Positions 1 through 9,581 are shown, numbered from the stretch's first letter. The stretch is 64,000 nt of DNA from an uncultured Alphaproteobacteria bacterium (GCA_963770515.1 CAVYPW010000003.1:348025-412024), one strand, 5' to 3'. Numbers and translations are program-made. Notes: generated by a model not told the origin, from the letters alone.

Positions 1-582
1 GAGCGGCTGAGCGCGTTCTCGGACGGTGTGTTCGCCGTTCTGATCACGGTGCTGGTACTGGAATTAAGGCCGCCCGAGCAGCCGACATTTGATGCGCTTT
101 CGGCGTTGTGGCCGACCGGGCTGAGCTATGCGGTGAGTTATCTGTTCATCGCGATCGTGTGGGCAAATCACCATTACCTCATGCGCTACGCAGCCGAGGC
201 GACGCCTCGGCTGCTGTGGTTCAATTTCGCGCATCTGTTTTCGATGTCGTTGCTTCCGCTCTCCACCGCCTGGATGGCCGTGAGCCGGCTATCGCCGCAA
301 CCGGTCGCCTTCTATGCGGCGACCTTCTTCCTGGTGAACCTGACCTACATCGCCCTGATCTGGGAGTTGATCGATCCGGCATCCACGTCCGCCACGAAGG
401 TGCGCGCGATCGTGCATGCGCGCTCGCTGGTCACGCTGTGCGTGTTCGCCGCCGCTGCGCTCGTCGCGCTGAAATACCCGGTCATCGGGCTCGCGATGTG
501 CATTGGCTGCCTCGTCTTCTATCTGAGGCCAGAACCGCCCTGGACGCAGGCCGCAGACGGCGCTGGCTCAGAAGATACGTAG
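1..582 (+). CDS. TMEM175 family (DUF1211) K+ channel-like membrane protein, 5' end outside the window
   Basis: The frame is open from base 1 and reads ERLSAFSDGVFAVLITVLVLEL, the TMEM175 RxxxFSD signature; W..HH motif and several TM helices follow. Confidence 0.9.
   Translation, partial: ERLSAFSDGVFAVLITVLVLELRPPEQPTFDALSALWPTGLSYAVSYLFIAIVWANHHYLMRYAAEATPRLLWFNFAHLFSMSLLPLSTAWMAVSRLSPQPVAFYAATFFLVNLTYIALIWELIDPASTSATKVRAIVHARSLVTLCVFAAAALVALKYPVIGLAMCIGCLVFYLRPEPPWTQAADGAGSEDT
469..582 (+). repeat. Direct repeat copy 1 (last 37 codons plus stop of the TMEM175 gene)
   Basis: Aligns without gaps to 1919..2032; 77/90 identical over the first 90 bp and 89/114 overall (hand count). Confidence 0.9.
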
Positions 583-617
583 CGCGTTCACGCGAGAGGG
601 CGAACGCAGCGTACGCG

Positions 618-1787
618 TCACTGGCTCGTCATTGCAGAGCCCCCATCCGGCGAAGCAACATCGCCCATATTCAGCTTACTGATGTCACCGCCGGCCCAAG
701 CAAGGGTTTTCGGGTCCATCACGCGGAACCACAGTGGCGGGATCGCCGCAAGCCCAAACATGCCGGTGTAACCGTTCGGCAGGCGCGGGATATCGTCAAA
801 ATCGCGCAACGACTGATAGGGGCGCATCGGGTTGGCGTGGTGGTCGGAATGACGTTGCAGGTGCAGGGTCATCAGGTTCGAGATGATATGGTTGGTGTTC
901 CAGGAGTGGCGCGGCTCGACCGGCTGGTAGCGGCCGTTCGGCAGCTTCTCGCGCAACAGCCCATAGTGCTCGACATAGTTGGCTTGAGTGAGCGCATACC
1001 AGCCGAGGAAATGATGGGCGACGATGATCGGTGCGATCTTCCAGCCGAACAGGGCAATCAGCCCGGCAGCGACCACGAACGTGAGCGCTAAGCCCTGCAG
1101 GATCTCGTTATTGACCGACCAAACGGGCTCGCCGCGCTTGGTCAGCCTTTCGGCCTCATTGCGCCAGCCACGCTTGAGCGCACCGGGTAATTCACGCGAT
1201 GCGAAAGCGTAGATCGATTCGCCAAAGCGGGCGCTCGCGGGGTCCTCGGGCGTCGCGACCCAGGTGTGATGACCGCGATTGTGCTCGATACGGAAGTGGG
1301 CGTAACCCACCGCATTGTTGGCGAGGATGCCGAAAAAGCTGTTGAGCCGATCGGGCTTATGGCCGAGTTCGTGCCCGACCAGCAGTGCGCCACCGTCTAT
1401 GGTGCCGACGCCGAGCAGCAACGCGATGTAGGACCACCACGGTAGATCCTGCGTGCCGCAGAAGGCAATCAAGGCAACGTAATTCACCCAAGGAAACACC
1501 ACGGTGATGCGCGCGAGCCGCAGATAGTAGGGATCGGCTTCCATGGCAGCGACCACTTCCGCTGGCGGATTGTGCGTGTCTTCGCCAATGATGGCATCGA
1601 GCAGCGGGATCAGGCCGAAAATGAAGAGGAATGGGATCAGCGTCACCGCCGGATTTTCCGTCCCGAGATAGAGCCAGTAGGACAGCAGAGGGACCAGCGG
1701 CGGAATGAACGAGAGCATCCACAAATAGCGTTTACCGTCCCGGTAGGTGATCGTTTCGCCAGCAGCCGTGGTGCCTGTGAAGATCAT
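618..1787 (-). CDS. alkB: Alkane 1-monooxygenase (integral-membrane di-iron hydroxylase)
   Basis: His boxes HELGH, EHNRGHH, NYVEHYG and LQRHSDHHA plus the PxLPxGY motif. Confidence 0.95.
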   Translation of the reverse strand: MIFTGTTAAGETITYRDGKRYLWMLSFIPPLVPLLSYWLYLGTENPAVTLIPFLFIFGLIPLLDAIIGEDTHNPPAEVVAAMEADPYYLRLARITVVFPWVNYVALIAFCGTQDLPWWSYIALLLGVGTIDGGALLVGHELGHKPDRLNSFFGILANNAVGYAHFRIEHNRGHHTWVATPEDPASARFGESIYAFASRELPGALKRGWRNEAERLTKRGEPVWSVNNEILQGLALTFVVAAGLIALFGWKIAPIIVAHHFLGWYALTQANYVEHYGLLREKLPNGRYQPVEPRHSWNTNHIISNLMTLHLQRHSDHHANPMRPYQSLRDFDDIPRLPNGYTGMFGLAAIPPLWFRVMDPKTLAWAGGDISKLNMGDVASPDGGSAMTSQ

Positions 1788-1918
1788 CGCGTTCCTCCAG
1801 CGTCTCCTTTCGAGGCGGCCTTTTTTTTAACTATAGCATGCCGTGAGCCTTTGGCACCGCCGGTTCACGGCCAAATTTGTCGCATTTGTCGGGATGTCGC
1901 GGCGGGCGCACAATCGCA

Positions 1919-2032
1919 CTGAGATGCCCGATCGCCGGGCTTACGATGTGCATTGGCTGCATCGTCTTCTATCTGAGACCCGAGCCGCCCTGGGCGCAGG
2001 CGGCAGACAGTATTGATGTGGAAGAGAGCTAG
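1919..2032 (+). pseudogene. Direct repeat copy 2: orphan 3' fragment of a TMEM175 gene
   Basis: Translates LRCPIAGLTMCIGCIVFYLRPEPPWAQAADSIDVEES* versus LKYPVIGLAMCIGCLVFYLRPEPPWTQAADGAGSEDT*; same length, same TAG stop, no upstream gene body. Confidence 0.85.
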
Positions 2033-2067
2033 CGCCTGCGCAATTCGCTCGCCTCCACCAACTTACG

Positions 2068-2169
2068 GTCATGCCCCGGCTAGACCGGGCATCCAGTACG
2101 CCGCGGATTTTCGTTTCTTGCCTTGAGGGTCGCTGGAGTACTGGATCAACCGCTTTGGCGGGTGATGAC
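2068..2169. repeat. REP-like palindromic element (GTCAT...ATGAC ends)
   Basis: Terminal GTCAT/ATGAC with internal ATCCAGTAC/GTACTGGAT inverted repeat; ends related to 11885..12012; lies just past the boxB stop. Confidence 0.7.
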
Positions 2170-2183
2170 CACCTACTCAGACC

Positions 2184-3635
2184 TCACGTCTCGATCTTCA
2201 CATACTCGAAATCGCCGGGCTTGTTGTCGATACCGATCTTCGGCGGCGAGATCCAGGAAGCGAATTCGCCCGCGTTCGTCACCGGCGTCATCAGCGAGGC
2301 GATGAAATCGCCGTCTTCGGTCGAGGGCAGCCACGCGCTCTTTTTTGCATTCCAGGTCGCATCCTCGATCAGCAGACCTTCGGGCGTAGCGTGGATGTTC
2401 TTGAATTCGCCGATCGCGCGGTGGAACGCGACGTTCGGCAGCGTCAGCTTGAAGTCGTAGCCGGCGGTCGAGATCACCTTGTTCCAGCGCAGCAGTCCCT
2501 TGACGCAATCCTGCGTGTAGTCGTCACGCAGCCGCATGTTGAGCGCGGTGAGCGCCGGCTCGTTGACGCGCGTGATCTTGCCGTCCACCAGCTTCAGCAC
2601 CGGATAGGTGTCGTCGCGCAGGCGGTGATCGTCCTTGATCTGGGTTTCGTGGTAACGGCCCTTGATGCCGGCATTGAAGGCATTCGCCGCATTGGTCGAA
2701 ACTTCCGATCCGAACAGATCCAGCGACAACGAGTAATGCAGGTGCAATTTCTTCTGGATGGTCGGCAGATCGATCACGCCGAGCGCGCGGACTTTTGCGA
2801 TCTCGGTGGGATCGGAGATGCCGGCCTCTCTCATCGCCTCGCAGGTGCGCTGCACGACGCGGGTGATGCCGGTTTCACCAACAAACATATGGTGCGCTTC
2901 TTCCGTCAGCATGAAGCGGCAGGTGCGCGACAATGGGTCGAAGCCGGATTGCGCCAGCGAGTGCAATTGCATCTTGCCGTCGCGATCGGTGAAATAGGTG
3001 AACATGAAGAACGACAGCCAGTCCGGGGTCGCTTCGTTGAAGGCGCCGAGCATGCGCGGTGAATCCGCATCGCCCGAGCGGCGGCGCAGCAACTCGTCGG
3101 CTTCCTCGCGGCCGTCGCGGCCGAAATATTTCTGCAACAGGTAGACCATCGCCCAGAGATGGCGGCCTTCCTCGACATTGACCTGGAACAGGTTGCGCAA
3201 GTCGTAGAGCGAGGGCGCGGTCTTGCCGAGGTGGCGCTGCTGTTCGACGGAAGCGGGCTCGGTGTCGCCCTGGATCACGATCAGCCGCCGCAACATCGCG
3301 CGGTATTCGCCCGGCACTTCCTGCCAGGCCGGCTCGCCATAATGCTCGCCGAACGGAATGACGCGATTTTCTTCTTGCGGAGCAAGAAGGATGCCCCAGC
3401 GATAGTCCGGCATCTTGACATAATCGAACTTGGCCCAGCCGCGCGGATCGACGGAGTAAGCCGTGCGCAGATAAACCAGCGACTGCTGGAAGCCTTCCGG
3501 TCCCATGTCGCCCCACCAGTCCATGTAGCCGGGGTGCCAGCCTTCCAGCGCCTTGAGCACCTGGCGATCTTCGCTCAGATTCACGTTGTTGGGAATCTTG
3601 GTCGAATAGTCGACGTTCATGATGTTGACGTTCAT
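2184..3635 (-). CDS. boxB: Benzoyl-CoA 2,3-epoxidase subunit BoxB (di-iron)
   Basis: IPNNVNL N-terminus, QGDTEPASVEQQ, EEGRHLW and EEAHH di-iron ligands. Start placed at ATG 3635 after an AGGAG RBS. Confidence 0.93.
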   Translation of the reverse strand: MNVNIMNVDYSTKIPNNVNLSEDRQVLKALEGWHPGYMDWWGDMGPEGFQQSLVYLRTAYSVDPRGWAKFDYVKMPDYRWGILLAPQEENRVIPFGEHYGEPAWQEVPGEYRAMLRRLIVIQGDTEPASVEQQRHLGKTAPSLYDLRNLFQVNVEEGRHLWAMVYLLQKYFGRDGREEADELLRRRSGDADSPRMLGAFNEATPDWLSFFMFTYFTDRDGKMQLHSLAQSGFDPLSRTCRFMLTEEAHHMFVGETGITRVVQRTCEAMREAGISDPTEIAKVRALGVIDLPTIQKKLHLHYSLSLDLFGSEVSTNAANAFNAGIKGRYHETQIKDDHRLRDDTYPVLKLVDGKITRVNEPALTALNMRLRDDYTQDCVKGLLRWNKVISTAGYDFKLTLPNVAFHRAIGEFKNIHATPEGLLIEDATWNAKKSAWLPSTEDGDFIASLMTPVTNAGEFASWISPPKIGIDNKPGDFEYVKIET

Positions 3636-3782
3636 GGCGTACTCCTTCGGCTTGTGCTCGTTTCCCGGACGCGGTGCGGCGCGAAGCGATGCACCGCAGA
3701 GCCGGGACCAAATCAGACGGTCCATGCGGGTCCCGGTTCAGCAGCGCGTCACAAACGTGCCGCGCAGCGCCCGGGACACAAA

Positions 3783-5471
3783 TTAAACCCTCGTCGTATC
3801 GAACTGCGCCTTTTGGCCGGTGCCGTAGCGGCGCAGCGCGCCCTCCTCGCCGACCGCATTGGGGCGCTGGAAGATCCAGTTCTGCCAGGCGGTGAGGCGG
3901 GAGAAAATCTTGGATTCCATGGTCTCGGGTCCGACGAAGCGCAGGTTTGCTTCCATGCCGGTGAGACCATCGGGCGAGAAGCTGGCGCGTTCCTCGAAGA
4001 ACACCCGCACCTCGTCGTCCCAGTCGATGTCGTCGAGCGCAAAGGTCACGAGCCCCAGCGCCTCGGCTTCCTCGGCATCGAGCGCCGCGCCGATGCGTTC
4101 GCGTGCGTGTTCGATATCGGAAGGTTGCGCCTGGAAGCGCAATTCAAGCCGCGTCAATCCGTGGCTCATCGGATAGGCGCCGAAATTCAGCGCCGAAAGC
4201 TCGATCGAAGGCGCGGCGCGGTTGTCGCCCTGGCGCGTGCCGATCAACATGTAGGAGCGGTCGGCGGCCAGCACGAGTTCGGCGAGCGTGCCGGCAAAGC
4301 ATGAGCCGGGCTCGACGAGGGCCACCAGCGTGCGCGAGGTGACGTCGATGCGCTTGAGCACCCGCTTCCAGTATTGCCTGATCTCGTTGACCAGCCAGTG
4401 CGCCTTGTTGGCTTCCAGAAAGCCGTCATAGGCGAGCACGTTGGCGGCTTCGCCATGCGACTTGAACACCAGCATGGCGATCTGAAGTTCGTTGATGCGC
4501 AGGTGAAGGATGGCATCGTCCAACTCGCGCGCGACCTGGAGTGGCCAGAAGTTCGCGCCCAGCGCGATCATGCCGTCGATGTCCGCGGGCGGCGGCGCCT
4601 CCGGCGCTGCAATTGAAATGGCGGCGATGCGCGCGGTGCGGTCGATGTCGACGCTGACGTAGGGATAGCGAATGGTGGTGTCGTCAATCGTGCGCGACAG
4701 TGGCGTCAGCGAAATGCCCTTGCCGTTGCCGTTACGCTTTGAAGCCGCGGCAAACTCTTTGGCGCGCTCGGCGACTTTGGCTTCGAGTTTGCTGTTCGGC
4801 ACGATCTCGTCGACCAGGCGCCACTGAACCGCGCGCTTGCCCTTGATGCCTTCCTCGATGGTGCAGAAATAATCGGCGTGGTCGCGACGCACCTTGCGCT
4901 TGTCGACGACGCGCGTCAGGCCGCCGGTGCCCGGCAGGACCGCAAGCAGCGGCACTTCGGGCAACGAAACTGCCGCAGAGCCATCATCGGCGAGGATGAT
5001 GTGATCGGTCGCGAGCGCCAATTCATAGCCGCCGCCGGCCGCGGTGCCGTTGACGACGGTGATGAAGCGCTGCCCGGAATTTTCCGAGGAGTCCTCAAAG
5101 CCGTTGCGCGTCTCGTTGGTGAACTTGCAGAAGTTGACCTTGTGGGCGTGGGTTGAGCCGGCCAGCATCCTGATATTGGCGCCGGCGCAAAACACCCGAT
5201 TCTTGCCCGAGCGCAGAATCACGACCTTCACATTGGGATGTTCGAAGCGCAGCCGCTGCACGGCGTCGGCGAGTTCGATATCGACGCCGAGATCGTAGGA
5301 ATTCAGCTTGAGCTGATAGCCTTCAAACAACCCGCCATTCTCATCGACATCCATGGTCAGCGTCGCGACCTCGCCGTCGACATCGAGCTTCCAATGGCGG
5401 TAGCGCGACGGATCAGTCTGGAAATCGATAAAACTCGCGCCCCTTGCGAGAATCCGCTCGTCACCGGCCAT
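3783..5471 (-). CDS. boxC: 2,3-epoxybenzoyl-CoA dihydrolase BoxC (double crotonase fold)
   Basis: YxHWKL, KLNSYDLGVDIELADA, GGGYELALA and C-terminal WQNWIFQRPNA; directly upstream of boxB. Confidence 0.93.
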   Translation of the reverse strand: MAGDERILARGASFIDFQTDPSRYRHWKLDVDGEVATLTMDVDENGGLFEGYQLKLNSYDLGVDIELADAVQRLRFEHPNVKVVILRSGKNRVFCAGANIRMLAGSTHAHKVNFCKFTNETRNGFEDSSENSGQRFITVVNGTAAGGGYELALATDHIILADDGSAAVSLPEVPLLAVLPGTGGLTRVVDKRKVRRDHADYFCTIEEGIKGKRAVQWRLVDEIVPNSKLEAKVAERAKEFAAASKRNGNGKGISLTPLSRTIDDTTIRYPYVSVDIDRTARIAAISIAAPEAPPPADIDGMIALGANFWPLQVARELDDAILHLRINELQIAMLVFKSHGEAANVLAYDGFLEANKAHWLVNEIRQYWKRVLKRIDVTSRTLVALVEPGSCFAGTLAELVLAADRSYMLIGTRQGDNRAAPSIELSALNFGAYPMSHGLTRLELRFQAQPSDIEHARERIGAALDAEEAEALGLVTFALDDIDWDDEVRVFFEERASFSPDGLTGMEANLRFVGPETMESKIFSRLTAWQNWIFQRPNAVGEEGALRRYGTGQKAQFDTTRV

Positions 5472-5509
5472 GGGCCATCCCTGAGTGCTGTTCTTCGTTA
5501 CCGGATATA

Positions 5510-5523
5510 TGCACAATAATGCA
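5510..5523. promoter_or_regulatory. Putative BoxR/BzdR-type operator TGCA-N6-TGCA upstream of boxC
   Basis: TGCA CAATAA TGCA lies about 40 bp upstream of the boxC ATG; another TGCA at 5563..5566. TGCA repeats are the recalled BzdR/BoxR operator unit. Confidence 0.6.
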
Positions 5524-5573
5524 TGTCGAGGGTCAAGTCTAGAGGCCAGAGATCACAAAATCTGCATTTTCCT

Positions 5574-6098
5574 TCATATTTTGCCGATCGATCCGATCGC
5601 AATCCAGTCAGTCTTCGACAAAGTAGCCTGGGCCAAACGGCCTTCCAGCAATGTTGCGAGGTGAGCTGTTGGAAAGCGCTCAGCGAAACCGTCCCCGCGA
5701 GCGGCCGACCGGCGTGACAGCAAATCCCTGATCGCCGCCAACGCCTCGCCCCACAGCCGCAAGGTCGGATGCGGCTTTCGCATCCGCAGTTTCAGATTGG
5801 CGCTGGCGATCTGGATGCAGGCGCGCAACAGGATGCGCTCGCGCCCGCCTTGCGGTGAAGCCGCCCAGACCGCTTCCAGCACTTCCTGCGCCTCCCAGAA
5901 GTAGCCGGCGTCGTTCAGTGCGATGCCGTAGCGAAGCGCGGGATGGCGCGCCGGCACGAAGCCAAAGAATTGCGAGGGCACCAGCGCCTTGGCCTGCCAC
6001 AACGCCCGGTGATCGGGTTCGGTATCTGCGGTTTCGCCGGGCACATAAGCCCAGCGCGGCAGCGGCAAATCAGCCGCGGTTGACGACGTCATACTCAT
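5574..6098 (-). CDS. DUF309 domain protein
   Basis: LNDAGYFWEAQEVLEAVW and IQIA motifs resemble DUF309. The start codon is uncertain (6110, 6098 or 6092). Confidence 0.8.
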   Translation of the reverse strand: MSMTSSTAADLPLPRWAYVPGETADTEPDHRALWQAKALVPSQFFGFVPARHPALRYGIALNDAGYFWEAQEVLEAVWAASPQGGRERILLRACIQIASANLKLRMRKPHPTLRLWGEALAAIRDLLSRRSAARGDGFAERFPTAHLATLLEGRLAQATLSKTDWIAIGSIGKI

Positions 6099-6113
6099 TG
6101 AACAACACACTTT

Positions 6114-6152
6114 TAAATTTACGCTTCTAAATTTGTGCGGTTAAATTTACGC
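6114..6152. repeat. Three AT-rich tandem repeats TAAATTT(AC/GT)GC with an exact 14-bp period
   Basis: taaatttacgc at 6114, taaatttgtgc at 6128, taaatttacgc at 6142. Confidence 0.8.
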
Positions 6153-6157
6153 GGGCA

Positions 6158-6181
6158 GTGGTTCTACTGATTCAGAACCAC
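6158..6181 (-). terminator. Hairpin downstream of the alpha/beta hydrolase gene (possible terminator)
   Basis: GTGGTTCT-N8-AGAACCAC perfect 8-bp stem just after the stop at 6189; no clear U-tract. Confidence 0.45.
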
Positions 6182-6188
6182 GGGGCCG

Positions 6189-6986
6189 CTACCCTTCATG
6201 CATAATCAAAATACGTTTGGCGAACTCCGAAATCGTTACGAGCGTCAGTTCAGGCACCTCGCGATGCGGTGAATGTCCCGCACCCGCTATCACCGTCACA
6301 TCGACGGGGCAATAACACTCCTCCTTCGCGATCTCGATCTGACGCATTGTCCCATATTGATCGTCCGCACCTTGCAGAATTGCGACAGGAACGCGAATGT
6401 AGGCGAGATATTCGCTGATGTCCCATCGACGAAAGTCGGGATCAAGCCAGGCGTCATTCCAGCCGTAGAAGGCGTTATCGACGTTGCGGTGCCAGCGCGC
6501 CAGCTTGGCCCGCAGGCCCGTCGTTTCATAGGTTTTTCTGATCCCGGCGATGGAGGCAACGGACACCTTCTCGACGATAAAATGCGGCGCGATCAGCACC
6601 ACGCCGCGCACGCGGTGATCGCTTGAGCCGCCGGCATAGATCGCCGCGATCGAAGCGCCGTCGGAGTGGCCGAGCAACACGCCGCGCTGAAAGTCGATGG
6701 CGTCGAGCAATGCCGGCAGCACGTCGAGCGCCTCGCGGCTCATATAATCGAGCGGTCGCGGCAGCGTGACCGGCGTCGAGGCGCCATAGCCGGCGCGCGA
6801 ATAGACGAAGACGCCCATGCCGGTGGCCGCTTGCAGCGATTGCGGAAAATCTCCCCACAGCGCGGCCGAGCCGAGCCCTTCATGCAGCATCACGATGGTC
6901 GGTGCAGCCGACGGCGCAGGGCCGATCATGCGGTATTCGAGATCGCTGCCGCCGATGTGGAGAAAGCCCTCAGGCGCCAATGTCAC
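6189..6986 (-). CDS. Alpha/beta hydrolase
   Basis: LHEGLGS oxyanion motif, GHSDG nucleophile elbow, DQYG acid and GHSPH His; the GTG start overlaps the ligase stop (GTGA). Confidence 0.88.
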   Translation of the reverse strand: MTLAPEGFLHIGGSDLEYRMIGPAPSAAPTIVMLHEGLGSAALWGDFPQSLQAATGMGVFVYSRAGYGASTPVTLPRPLDYMSREALDVLPALLDAIDFQRGVLLGHSDGASIAAIYAGGSSDHRVRGVVLIAPHFIVEKVSVASIAGIRKTYETTGLRAKLARWHRNVDNAFYGWNDAWLDPDFRRWDISEYLAYIRVPVAILQGADDQYGTMRQIEIAKEECYCPVDVTVIAGAGHSPHREVPELTLVTISEFAKRILIMHEG

Positions 6987-8530
6987 GTCGCATCGTCCCG
7001 CAGCTTGAACCGCTGGATCTTGCCGGTCGCGGTTTTCGGCAAGGCCTCGACGGTCTCGATCCAACGCGGATATTTCCAGACGCCGATCTTCTGCTTGACG
7101 TGCTCCTTCAACGCCTCGTCGAGGCCGTCTGTCTTGGCGCCGGCGCGCAGCACCACGAACGCCTTGGGCTTGAGCAAGCCTTCGCTATCTGCCTCGGGCA
7201 CCACCGCAGCCTCGAGCACTGCGGGATGAGTGATCAGCGCGCTCTCGACCTCGAACGGCGACACCCAGATGCCGGACACCTTGAACATGTCGTCGCTGCG
7301 GCCGCAGAACGTATAGCGCCCGTCGGCGTCGCGAATGTATTTGTCGCCGGTACGCGTCCAATGCCCCTCGAACGTACGCCGGCTTTTGCTGCGCTGATTC
7401 CAGTAGCCTTCGCCCGCCGACGGCGCATCCACCAGGAGTTCGCCGACTTCGCCATCGGACACGTCGCCGCCTGCCTCATTGACAAGCCGCACCTTGTAGC
7501 CGGGCACCGGGCGGCCGGACGAGCCGTATCGGATATCGCCGGGCGCGTTCGACAGGAAGATATGCAGCAACTCGGTCGAACCGACGCCGTCGAGAATGTC
7601 GACGCCAAAGCGCGCCTTCCAGGCATTGCCCACCGACTCCGGCAAGGCTTCGCCCGCCGACGTGCAGACCCGCAAGCGCTCCCCGCCGCCGTGTGTTTTA
7701 AGAGATTCATCGTTCAGCATCGCGGCGAACAGCGTCGGAACGCCGTAAAAGATGCTGGGATGATATTTATTCATCAGCGCAAATATCGCCGCCGGCGTCG
7801 GCCGTTCGGGATTGAGCACGGTGGTGGCGCCGACCGACATCGGGAAGGTCAGCGCGTTGCCGAGGCCATAGGCGAAAAACAATTTCGCCGCCGATAGACA
7901 CACATCGTCCTCGCGGATGCCGAGCACCTGCCTGGCATAGGTCTCTGCGGTCGCGGCGAGATTGGCGTGCAGGTGCCGCACCCCCTTGGGCATGCCGGTT
8001 GAGCCCGACGAATAAAGCCAGAAGGCGGGCTCGTCGGGATGCGTCGCCGCGATCGTGAACGTATCGCTTTCGCCTTTGAGCTCTTCGGATAGCAACTTGT
8101 GCCCGAATGAATTCTTGCCGGAGACCACGACGCAATCGAGATCGCCCATCCGCCCCACAACGTCTTTCACGACCGGATACAGCGCTTCGGAAATGAACAG
8201 CACCCGCGCGCGGCAATCGGCGAGCACATAGGCATATTGATCCGCAGTCAAAAGCGTATTGAGCGGCACCGGCACGATGCCGGCGCGCATCGCGCCGAGA
8301 AACACCGCCGGGAAATCCACCGTGTCGAGCATGATCATCGCCACCCGCTCTTCGCGGCGGACGCCGAGCCGGCGCAGGAAGTTGGCGACGCGGCAACTCT
8401 GCCGTTGCAAATCGCGATAGCTCAGTTCGGAAACAGTGTCGGTATAGGCCAGCTTGTCGGCCCGGCCCTCGACGATATTGCGGTCGAGCAGATAGGTCAC
8501 CGCATTGTACGCGCCTGATATCTCGCTCAT
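6983..8530 (-). CDS. Benzoate-CoA ligase family protein
   Basis: YSSGSTGMPKGV AMP-binding loop, AAKLFFAYGLGN, GVGSTE, TGDKY and KIQRFKLR; sits in a box cluster. Confidence 0.92.
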   Translation of the reverse strand: MSEISGAYNAVTYLLDRNIVEGRADKLAYTDTVSELSYRDLQRQSCRVANFLRRLGVRREERVAMIMLDTVDFPAVFLGAMRAGIVPVPLNTLLTADQYAYVLADCRARVLFISEALYPVVKDVVGRMGDLDCVVVSGKNSFGHKLLSEELKGESDTFTIAATHPDEPAFWLYSSGSTGMPKGVRHLHANLAATAETYARQVLGIREDDVCLSAAKLFFAYGLGNALTFPMSVGATTVLNPERPTPAAIFALMNKYHPSIFYGVPTLFAAMLNDESLKTHGGGERLRVCTSAGEALPESVGNAWKARFGVDILDGVGSTELLHIFLSNAPGDIRYGSSGRPVPGYKVRLVNEAGGDVSDGEVGELLVDAPSAGEGYWNQRSKSRRTFEGHWTRTGDKYIRDADGRYTFCGRSDDMFKVSGIWVSPFEVESALITHPAVLEAAVVPEADSEGLLKPKAFVVLRAGAKTDGLDEALKEHVKQKIGVWKYPRWIETVEALPKTATGKIQRFKLRDDAT

Positions 8531-8672
8531 GCTGTTTCCCTTGAAGTCCCCTCACCTCAGGCAACGAAGCGCACCATCGCCTGCCCGTGTTGTTTTTAAG
8601 CATTATAATTCATAGAAAGGCACCGCTTACGCTTGCTGTCAATCCTCTTCGGCATTATCCTTCCGGTATACG

Positions 8673-9581
8673 ATGAGCATGACCAGCGATCCCGAAACCA
8701 CCTTTCTCGAACAGCTTGGCCAGCGTGTGCGCACCATGCGTGCGCTGCGCGGCATGTCGCGCAAGGTGCTGGCCAGAGTCTCCGGCATTTCCGAGCGTTA
8801 CATCGCGCAGTTAGAGGCTGGCCGCGGCAACGTCTCGATCGTGCTGCTGCGGCGGGTGTCGAACGCGATGGGCGCGCATCTGGAGGATCTGATTCCGGCC
8901 GCCGAACCGTCACCGGACTGGGCCGTGATCCGCGATCTCCTGCGCAAGGCGTCGTCGGCGCAGATCACACAAGCCAAGGACATTCTCGCCGGTCAGAACG
9001 CGTCGACGCAGCGGCTGAAATCTTTCGCCGGCATCGCCCTGATCGGATTGCGCGGCGCCGGCAAATCGACGCTCGGCAAACTGCTCGCCCAAAAGATCGG
9101 CTGGAATTTCGTCGAACTCAACAAGGAGATCGAGGCGCAAAACGGGCTCTCGGTCGCCGAGATCATAGCGCTCTACGGCCAGGAAGGTTTTCGCCGCCTG
9201 GAGCAGGCGGCGCTGACCCAATTGCTGGCGCGAAAAGAGCTAACGGTGCTGGCGACCGGCGGCGGCATCGTCTCCGAACCCGTGACATTCGATCTCATCC
9301 TGTCGTCGTTCTATACGATCTGGCTGAAGGCCGAGCCGGAAGAGCACATGGCCCGCGTCCGCAAGCAAGGCGATCTGCGTCCGATGGCCGACGACCGCTC
9401 GGCGATGGCGGAGTTGCGCAATATTCTGGTGAGCCGTGAGCCGCTCTACGCCCGTGCCTCCGCGGTGGTCGATACCGCCGGTCTCAGCGTGGATGCCGCC
9501 GCAGCCAGGCTGACCGAGGCGGTCGCGCCTGTGCTGCAAATCGAGTCGAAGGCGTTCGGCTTGCGCAGCGCGGCGCGCTGA
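8673..9581 (+). CDS. boxR: BoxR/BzdR-type regulator (XRE HTH + shikimate-kinase-like benzoyl-CoA sensor)
   Basis: N-terminal HTH (SGISERYIAQLEAGRGNVS) fused to GLRGAGKST...ATGGG shikimate-kinase fold; divergent from the ligase. Confidence 0.9.
   Translation: MSMTSDPETTFLEQLGQRVRTMRALRGMSRKVLARVSGISERYIAQLEAGRGNVSIVLLRRVSNAMGAHLEDLIPAAEPSPDWAVIRDLLRKASSAQITQAKDILAGQNASTQRLKSFAGIALIGLRGAGKSTLGKLLAQKIGWNFVELNKEIEAQNGLSVAEIIALYGQEGFRRLEQAALTQLLARKELTVLATGGGIVSEPVTFDLILSSFYTIWLKAEPEEHMARVRKQGDLRPMADDRSAMAELRNILVSREPLYARASAVVDTAGLSVDAAAARLTEAVAPVLQIESKAFGLRSAAR

Follow-up and report, generated by a model that had tools for sequence, protein, structure and literature searches.

Positions 2184 to 9581 of the DNA stretch analysed here (the window, 64,000 nucleotides from an uncultured Alphaproteobacteria bacterium, GCA_963770515.1 CAVYPW010000003.1:348025-412024) hold a six-gene cluster of the aerobic benzoyl-CoA (box) pathway in which the genes for BoxA and BoxD are missing. 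We propose that this locus is a working catabolic cluster of alphaproteobacterial type and the usual form of the cluster in Bradyrhizobium, from which boxA has been cleanly deleted and in which a conserved accessory protein of the DUF309 family carries glutamine in place of histidine at position 75. Taken as a whole, including our reading of the DUF309 protein, this explanation is somewhat more probable than its alternatives combined, and its evolutionary and anatomical part can be held with high confidence. For benzoate, the box pathway is the “hybrid” aerobic route of the textbooks, and what is known of its biochemistry was worked out in a few Betaproteobacteria possessing both BoxA and BoxD.

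Open reading frames (ORFs) and protein family scans confirmed the gene order given in the initial annotation, with boxR divergent from bclA, an alpha/beta hydrolase gene, DUF309, boxC and boxB. The benzoate-CoA ligase gene bclA (6983-8530, minus strand) scored 889 bits with TIGR02262, boxC (3783-5516, minus strand) 984 bits with the equivalog model TIGR03222 (cut-off 712) and boxB (2184-3725, minus strand, with a probable start near 3635), encoding the di-iron benzoyl-CoA 2,3-epoxidase oxygenase, 920 bits with the equivalog model TIGR03225 (cut-off 499). The divergent boxR (8673-9581, plus strand) encodes a repressor of the BoxR/BzdR type with Pfam domains HTH_3 and SKI, the latter shikimate-kinase-like, and scored 434 bits with NF006015. 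All four proteins exceed the curated NCBIfam cut-offs by far and can be assigned to the box pathway, whereas BoxA and BoxD could not be found anywhere in the genome, which is 99.97% complete. The best match to the BoxA model reached 79 bits against a cut-off of 459, and the top matches were a CysJ-like FAD/NAD reductase and a P450-reductase fusion; the presence of a BoxA-like reductase elsewhere in the genome was rejected, since the matches were generic FNR-domain proteins only. Similarly, two reference BoxD proteins from other loci, whose identity was confirmed with the structures 2VRO and 2Y53 (“aldehyde dehydrogenase (box pathway)”), matched only generic aldehyde dehydrogenases of the genome at 24-30% identity, and no protein of the genome scored above the cut-off of the PaaN/PaaZ model. 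The absence of BoxA and BoxD noted initially for the cluster therefore holds genome-wide.

The canonical box cluster of Azoarcus/Aromatoleum evansii and Paraburkholderia xenovorans LB400 comprises boxR, boxCBA and a divergent boxD-bclA-lactonase arm, its BoxD being represented by the structures 2VRO/2Y53. It has in common with the window BoxB, BoxC, the ligase and BoxR (at equivalog level) and a hydrolase gene next to bclA. Unlike the canonical cluster, the window has no BoxA or BoxD in the genome, a co-linear bclA-hydrolase-DUF309-boxCB arrangement instead of the divergent boxD-bclA arm, and a DUF309 gene, none of which was found in the loci of betaproteobacterial type examined.

The counts in the genus and the family indicate that a cluster without boxA and boxD is the normal state in Bradyrhizobium and not a strain oddity. 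In a sample of 151 genomes of the Bradyrhizobium family, a boxB match was found in 100 and a boxA match in 43, and 57 genomes had boxB without boxA. Of these family genomes, 15 encode BoxD-type proteins (51-59% identity; open frames 524-607 amino acids long) and 38 encode PaaZ-type fusions, but neither type was found in the window's genus within this sample. A separate sample of 81 Bradyrhizobium genomes, 53 of them of high quality, contained boxB in 78 (including all 53 of high quality), boxA in three and DUF309 in 35, the last count including an unpublished genome (G560) on which no other result depends. This means that 75 of the 78 boxB-carrying Bradyrhizobium genomes are without boxA and 43 are without DUF309; the sister genera that lack boxA have lost DUF309. 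It could be argued from the genome-wide absence of two textbook enzymes, and from the loss of DUF309 in about half of the genus, that the cluster is a decaying relic and that the replacement of histidine in DUF309 is part of this decay. However, boxB persists in almost the entire genus sample, all six genes of the cluster are intact with ratios of non-synonymous to synonymous substitution rates (dN/dS) of 0.07-0.35, and since boxA is absent from 57 of the 100 boxB-carrying family genomes, the state without boxA is both stable and widespread. We consider a relic very improbable indeed. In this sample BoxA is missing from more than half of the family's boxB-carrying genomes, most of which also lack BoxD, yet BoxB and BoxC are under strong selection, so that these clusters raise the question of electron donor and aldehyde oxidation for a large and agriculturally important group.

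Two Bradyrhizobium genomes depart from a single copy. One (G569, contig C16) carries DUF309 with boxB twice, at 681144-685099 and 775100-779055, with identical search scores, in inverted orientation and about 90 kb apart. The other (G579) has two boxB genes (C24, 12114-14786; C1, 186397-187818), one adjoining boxA and the other not, and no DUF309 was found in that genome.

The loss of boxA can be traced by comparison with relatives that have kept it. The ancestral order is boxR divergent from bclA-hydrolase-DUF309, followed by boxC-boxB-boxA, and the Bradyrhizobium form is derived from it. In L175, a Bradyrhizobium locus with boxA, the DNA past boxA matches the DNA directly past boxB in the boxA-less loci L006-L008 at 76-85% identity, and it also matches the DNA beyond alkB and TMEM175 in L174, a metagenomic Bradyrhizobium contig. 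The 1.4 kb holding boxA is absent from the boxA-less loci, the loss lying between boxB and a conserved short-chain dehydrogenase (SDR) gene, and tblastn found no boxA remnant beside boxB (E at least 0.25). We conclude that boxA was cleanly deleted. The interval corresponding to boxA in boxA-carrying relatives lies at 1788-2183 of the window and likewise holds no remnant. In the sub-lineage to which the window belongs, alkB (of the FA_desaturase family) and TMEM175 are found between boxB and the SDR gene (window 1-2183; L174 14059-15871), an insertion at the old boxA junction that followed the loss of boxA.

The history of BoxB itself differs from that of its neighbours. In L175, five of the six proteins (BoxR, the ligase, the hydrolase, DUF309 and BoxC) cluster with their Bradyrhizobium counterparts, whereas BoxB is 92% identical to the BoxB of Tardiphaga and 79-82% identical to that of boxA-less Bradyrhizobium. 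When L175 and L176 were compared with the window, L006-L008 and L075, BoxB grouped by the presence of boxA and the other five genes by genus. This points to one of two histories, a joint exchange of boxB and boxA or a divergence of BoxB once boxA had been lost. A consistent difference between the BoxB of boxA-carrying and boxA-less clusters was seen at only two to three positions, with E255H and V287I (numbered by high-scoring segment pair).

The initial annotation had presented the hydrolase and DUF309 as standing in the cluster instead of boxA and boxD. This does not agree with their distribution, since both accompany boxA in the great majority of clusters and boxD in some. The hydrolase gene (6189-6986, minus strand; ORF 6189-7064) matches Pfam Abhydrolase_1/6, and its most likely start codon is the GTG at 6986, which overlaps the TGA stop of the ligase gene as GTGA; the hydrolase is thus translationally coupled to the ligase. 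Its product shares about 40% identity with the uncharacterised structure PDB 9L75 (E 4e-36), in which its motifs GHSDG (the nucleophile elbow), GADDQYG and GAGHSPH have aligned counterparts, so that it has an alpha/beta-hydrolase fold with a Ser-Asp-His triad, the triad being assigned by sequence inspection. In tblastn searches over 60 family loci picked by boxB, 80 loci picked by DUF309 and 20 phylum-level loci picked by boxB, the hydrolase gene adjoined bclA or boxC in most clusters, whether boxA or boxD was present or not. It lies next to bclA in BoxR-controlled clusters, both in the alphaproteobacterial loci and in two clusters of betaproteobacterial type (L170 and L172, 41-48% identity). 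An orthologous hydrolase is listed as a putative “3-hydroxyadipyl-CoA lactone lactonase” in betaproteobacterial BoxR regulons, where the activity is a proposal (PMC6449761). The gene was therefore not without an assignment, as had been supposed, and the suggestion made initially that it may be a lactonase agrees with the function proposed for this family, itself putative. The hydrolase is the orthologue of the conserved putative lactonase of box clusters (COG0596/COG2267). A role as a replacement for BoxD was considered and rejected, because both proteins are encoded in L047, L060, L064, L088, L155, L159, L162 and L170.

The DUF309 gene (5574-6098, minus strand; ORF 5574-6110) has its probable start codon, an ATG, at 6098, from which a protein of 174 amino acids like its homologues would result. 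It is the sole DUF309 gene of the genome and its product scored 56.1 bits with PF03745 against a gathering score of 27. A search of 1.84 billion representative proteins produced 812 relatives, and the motif W-E-[A/S/C]-H-E-x-[L/W]-E was found in nearly all full-length ones. The genomic context of the family was examined by scanning one genome per species with a 49-member alignment as query and taking the best 80 loci. These loci came from Anderseniella and from Tardiphaga, Chelatococcus, Microvirga, the Sulfitobacter/Roseobacter group, Hyphomicrobiaceae and the gammaproteobacterium Granulosicoccus; in all but the first-named we describe the operon as bclA-hydrolase-DUF309-boxC-boxB-boxA(-thioesterase)-boxR, the usual order over all the loci being bclA-hydrolase-DUF309-boxC-boxB-boxA(-boxR). 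Within the 80, boxC was immediately downstream in 71, boxB was present in 68, the hydrolase was upstream in 62 and boxA was present in 61. Where there was enough flanking DNA, boxA was found in every case (56 of 56). The loci without box genes mostly end beside DUF309, and in four longer ones (L104, L113, L132 and L136) no boxC or boxB was found. The window shares with the alpha- and gammaproteobacterial operons the order and orientation from bclA to boxB and a DUF309 protein of the same subfamily (33-54% identity), but these operons keep boxA and His75 where the window has the clean deletion and Gln75.

We therefore rejected DUF309 as a replacement for BoxA, since the two co-occur in all 56 assessable loci selected by DUF309 and in eight loci selected by boxB. 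Occasionally DUF309 also accompanies boxD, which lies directly upstream of it in L088 and L107. Since DUF309 is found mostly with boxA and sometimes with boxD, it is not a substitute for either. In three alphaproteobacterial clusters (L155, L159 and L162) boxD fills the DUF309 slot between the hydrolase gene and boxC, and DUF309 was not found in the eight box loci of betaproteobacterial type that were examined. DUF309 is therefore a conserved accessory gene of box operons in Alpha- and Gammaproteobacteria, and the subfamily is almost confined to box operons. No paper tying DUF309 to box genes was found in the library of papers searched. The linkage anticipated for DUF309 proteins with the H-to-Q change was thus borne out, together with the conservation of both DUF309 and the hydrolase alongside box genes, but the linkage is not special to the Gln form, as the whole His-type subfamily shares it. 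Defining a box-specific DUF309 subfamily provides a testable context for this domain and for a three-residue site whose conservation follows BoxA.

This site is where the window protein departs from its family. Its translation reads WEAQEVLE, and the motif E-x-H-E-x-x-E is lost through the Gln at position 75, where His is found in at least 90% of 49 diverse aligned subfamily members. The contrast drawn in the initial annotation was therefore correct. For a comparison by site, 120 clusters of the Bradyrhizobium clade were set against the 80 loci, which had been retrieved with a pattern containing His. Position 75 is His in 100% of the retrieved loci and Gln in 93% of the Bradyrhizobium clade (rarely H, R, K or G); position 76 is Glu in 100% as against 70% Glu and 30% Gln; and position 103 is Asn in 100% as against 72%, being replaced in 28%. 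In total, 21 of the 24 strongly conserved DUF309 positions are kept in the Bradyrhizobium clade. Within the genus, His is found in both genomes that have boxA together with DUF309 (L175 and L176) and Gln in 18 boxA-less genomes, and six boxA-carrying family loci picked by boxB and not by the motif all have His75. Asn75 occurs in one isolated hydrolase-DUF309 pair. The dN/dS was 0.07-0.15 for BoxB and BoxC, and for DUF309 it was 0.15-0.35 in Bradyrhizobium as against 0.14-0.32 in boxA-carrying lineages. Since these ranges are the same, a general relaxation of DUF309 in Bradyrhizobium was rejected, and the change at His75 is therefore site-specific and not a sign of general decay. The suggestion that the H-to-Q protein marks a specialised subfamily is upheld in that the change is lineage-specific, with Gln predominating in the clade, and the protein is under purifying selection.

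The predicted structure of the DUF309 protein (AlphaFold, predicted local distance difference test 92) has the fold of the structural-genomics DUF309 proteins (PF03745, COG1547) rrnAC1037 (2IJQ; VIA-align Z 12.0, root-mean-square deviation 3.0 over 116 residues) and TTHA0068 (2CWY; Z 8.4, root-mean-square deviation 2.8 over 93 residues). The Pfam domain and the helical fold are shared with both, but the box-linked proteins have an extra conserved N-terminal segment (P18, P24, G25) and the window protein is without the family His. We propose that DUF309 would be a small helical accessory protein whose His/Glu/Asn site would serve a BoxA-dependent step, such as coupling or controlling the electron input from BoxA, possibly together with the hydrolase; after the loss of boxA the site would change and the gene would become dispensable. 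This BoxA-linked mechanism is suggested because the His follows BoxA and because DUF309 has repeatedly been lost where boxA is absent, and we put it forward tentatively, as a possibility well short of probable. In the fuller form of this proposal DUF309 would be an effector of the benzoyl-CoA epoxidase, with His75, Glu76 and Asn103 working with BoxA to couple or gate electrons, perhaps with the hydrolase, and the Gln75 form of Bradyrhizobium would have been re-tooled for a non-BoxA reductase serving BoxB in the many box clusters without boxA; we think this unlikely. The phenylacetyl-CoA epoxidase PaaABC(D)E and the multicomponent di-iron monooxygenases also have accessory proteins, and a small non-catalytic protein encoded with a di-iron acyl-CoA epoxidase would resemble them by analogy only, as the fold search gave no sequence or fold relation of DUF309 to the accessory proteins of either system.

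Several points weigh against a BoxA-dependent role. The pattern used for the 80-locus scan contained His, so that other forms were excluded by design. A paired test on the tree of His against BoxA gave two to three concordant and no discordant pairs with a median p of 0.5, the number of independent pairs being too small; there are few independent events because the boxA-less relatives form one clade on the BoxB tree. L174 has His75 without boxA. The conservation of Gln75 at 93% suggests a new function rather than simple decay. In the sample selected by boxB, DUF309 accompanied boxA in eight loci and boxA was without DUF309 in 27 of 35, and since none was found in the clusters of betaproteobacterial type examined either, BoxA does not need DUF309. 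Beyond the DUF309 structures 2IJQ and 2CWY, the fold search returned only generic helical or TPR-like matches and no functional relative, and the genome searches for BoxA and BoxD brought out no candidate reductase or aldehyde dehydrogenase. Finally, the tight packing of the hydrolase and DUF309 genes points to the hydrolase as a partner instead.

This last point leads to a different explanation, in which DUF309 is a partner or subunit of the hydrolase (a lid, an activator or a specificity factor for the lactonase/esterase) and its association with BoxA would be a coincidence. In 72-74 loci DUF309 starts at or just before the end of the hydrolase gene (median gap 9 nucleotides measured to the first aligned residue, with a 4-nucleotide overlap possible in 13 loci), whereas the DUF309-boxC spacer is about 100 nucleotides long (quartiles 83 and 115, kept across 86 loci). 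Fused hydrolase-DUF309 ORFs (P0193/L195, P0271 and P0273) and a lone hydrolase-DUF309 pair without boxC (P0268) are also in its favour, but the fusions are singletons, and since DUF309-BoxC fusions (P0274, P0275) are equally rare they may be errors of assembly or gene calling. Furthermore, in approximately 9-11 loci whose upstream DNA extends for a full 10 kb, the order is DUF309-boxC-boxB-boxA and no hydrolase gene lies nearby (including L090, L103, L107, L126, L102, L134 and L109), DUF309 is absent beside most box hydrolases, and a hydrolase partner would leave unexplained why His75 follows BoxA. We consider this explanation possible without being probable, and rate it about equal to the BoxA-linked mechanism. 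One of the loci with a fused frame, the metagenomic box cluster L195 (301-3590), has a PnbB-like cupin gene before the ligase gene, and its single hydrolase-DUF309 ORF of 413 amino acids is either a fusion or a frameshift.

It had also been proposed initially that DUF309 assists the assembly of the BoxB di-iron centre, as a metallochaperone or assembly factor that loads iron. The conserved W-E-x-H-E-x-x-E resembles a metal-binding site, the gene always lies just upstream of boxC-boxB, and small assembly or effector proteins occur in other di-iron oxygenase systems. However, BoxB in Bradyrhizobium remains as strongly conserved as its dN/dS of 0.07-0.15 indicates, although DUF309 has lost its His and in part its Glu. 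Moreover, DUF309 is absent from the 43 boxB-carrying Bradyrhizobium genomes mentioned above and from most box clusters generally, and it was not found in the eight loci of betaproteobacterial type examined. A role in iron loading is therefore disfavoured and seems to us quite improbable.

In a cluster such as that of the window, the electrons for BoxB would come from a non-orthologous reductase, and the ring-cleavage aldehyde would be oxidised by a generic, non-orthologous aldehyde dehydrogenase. In three boxA-less clusters of one genus an FNR-like gene was observed (L034 13317-13970, L035 6049-6810 and L036 19023-19877). It lies about 2.5 kb past boxB in L034 and L035 and about 8 kb past it in L036, and its product is 29-32% identical to the reductase domain of BoxA; from this likeness it may be an alternative reductase. 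The SDR gene already mentioned flanks the 3' end of the cluster on the opposite strand in Bradyrhizobium (L006-L008, L174 and L175), and its product may supply the missing 3-hydroxyadipyl-CoA dehydrogenase activity or may use the aldehyde as substrate.

The spacer between the hydrolase gene and DUF309 (6099-6188) is AT-rich (43% GC). Within it, GTGGTTCT-N8-AGAACCAC makes up a perfect hairpin of 8 bp, and GCGTAAATTTAA occurs twice. Such a spacer is missing from most other loci, where the hydrolase gene and DUF309 adjoin or overlap, but one of comparable length is found in L174 and L175. The spacer between DUF309 and boxC (5472-5573, 46% GC) has the repeat TGCA-N6-TGCA at 5510-5523, and TGCA occurs there a third time at 5563. 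BoxR and BzdR bind TGCA repeats (PMC6449761), and we regard the boxC spacer with its repeats as a candidate site for BoxR binding and for a boxCB promoter. A scan for promoters and terminators performed no better than on shuffled sequence. The cluster is probably transcribed as two units, bclA-hydrolase-DUF309 and boxCB(A). The divergent region between boxR and bclA (8531-8672) contains GCATTAT twice and no TGCA; the same heptamer recurs in the boxC spacer, and its copies are further candidate BoxR operators.

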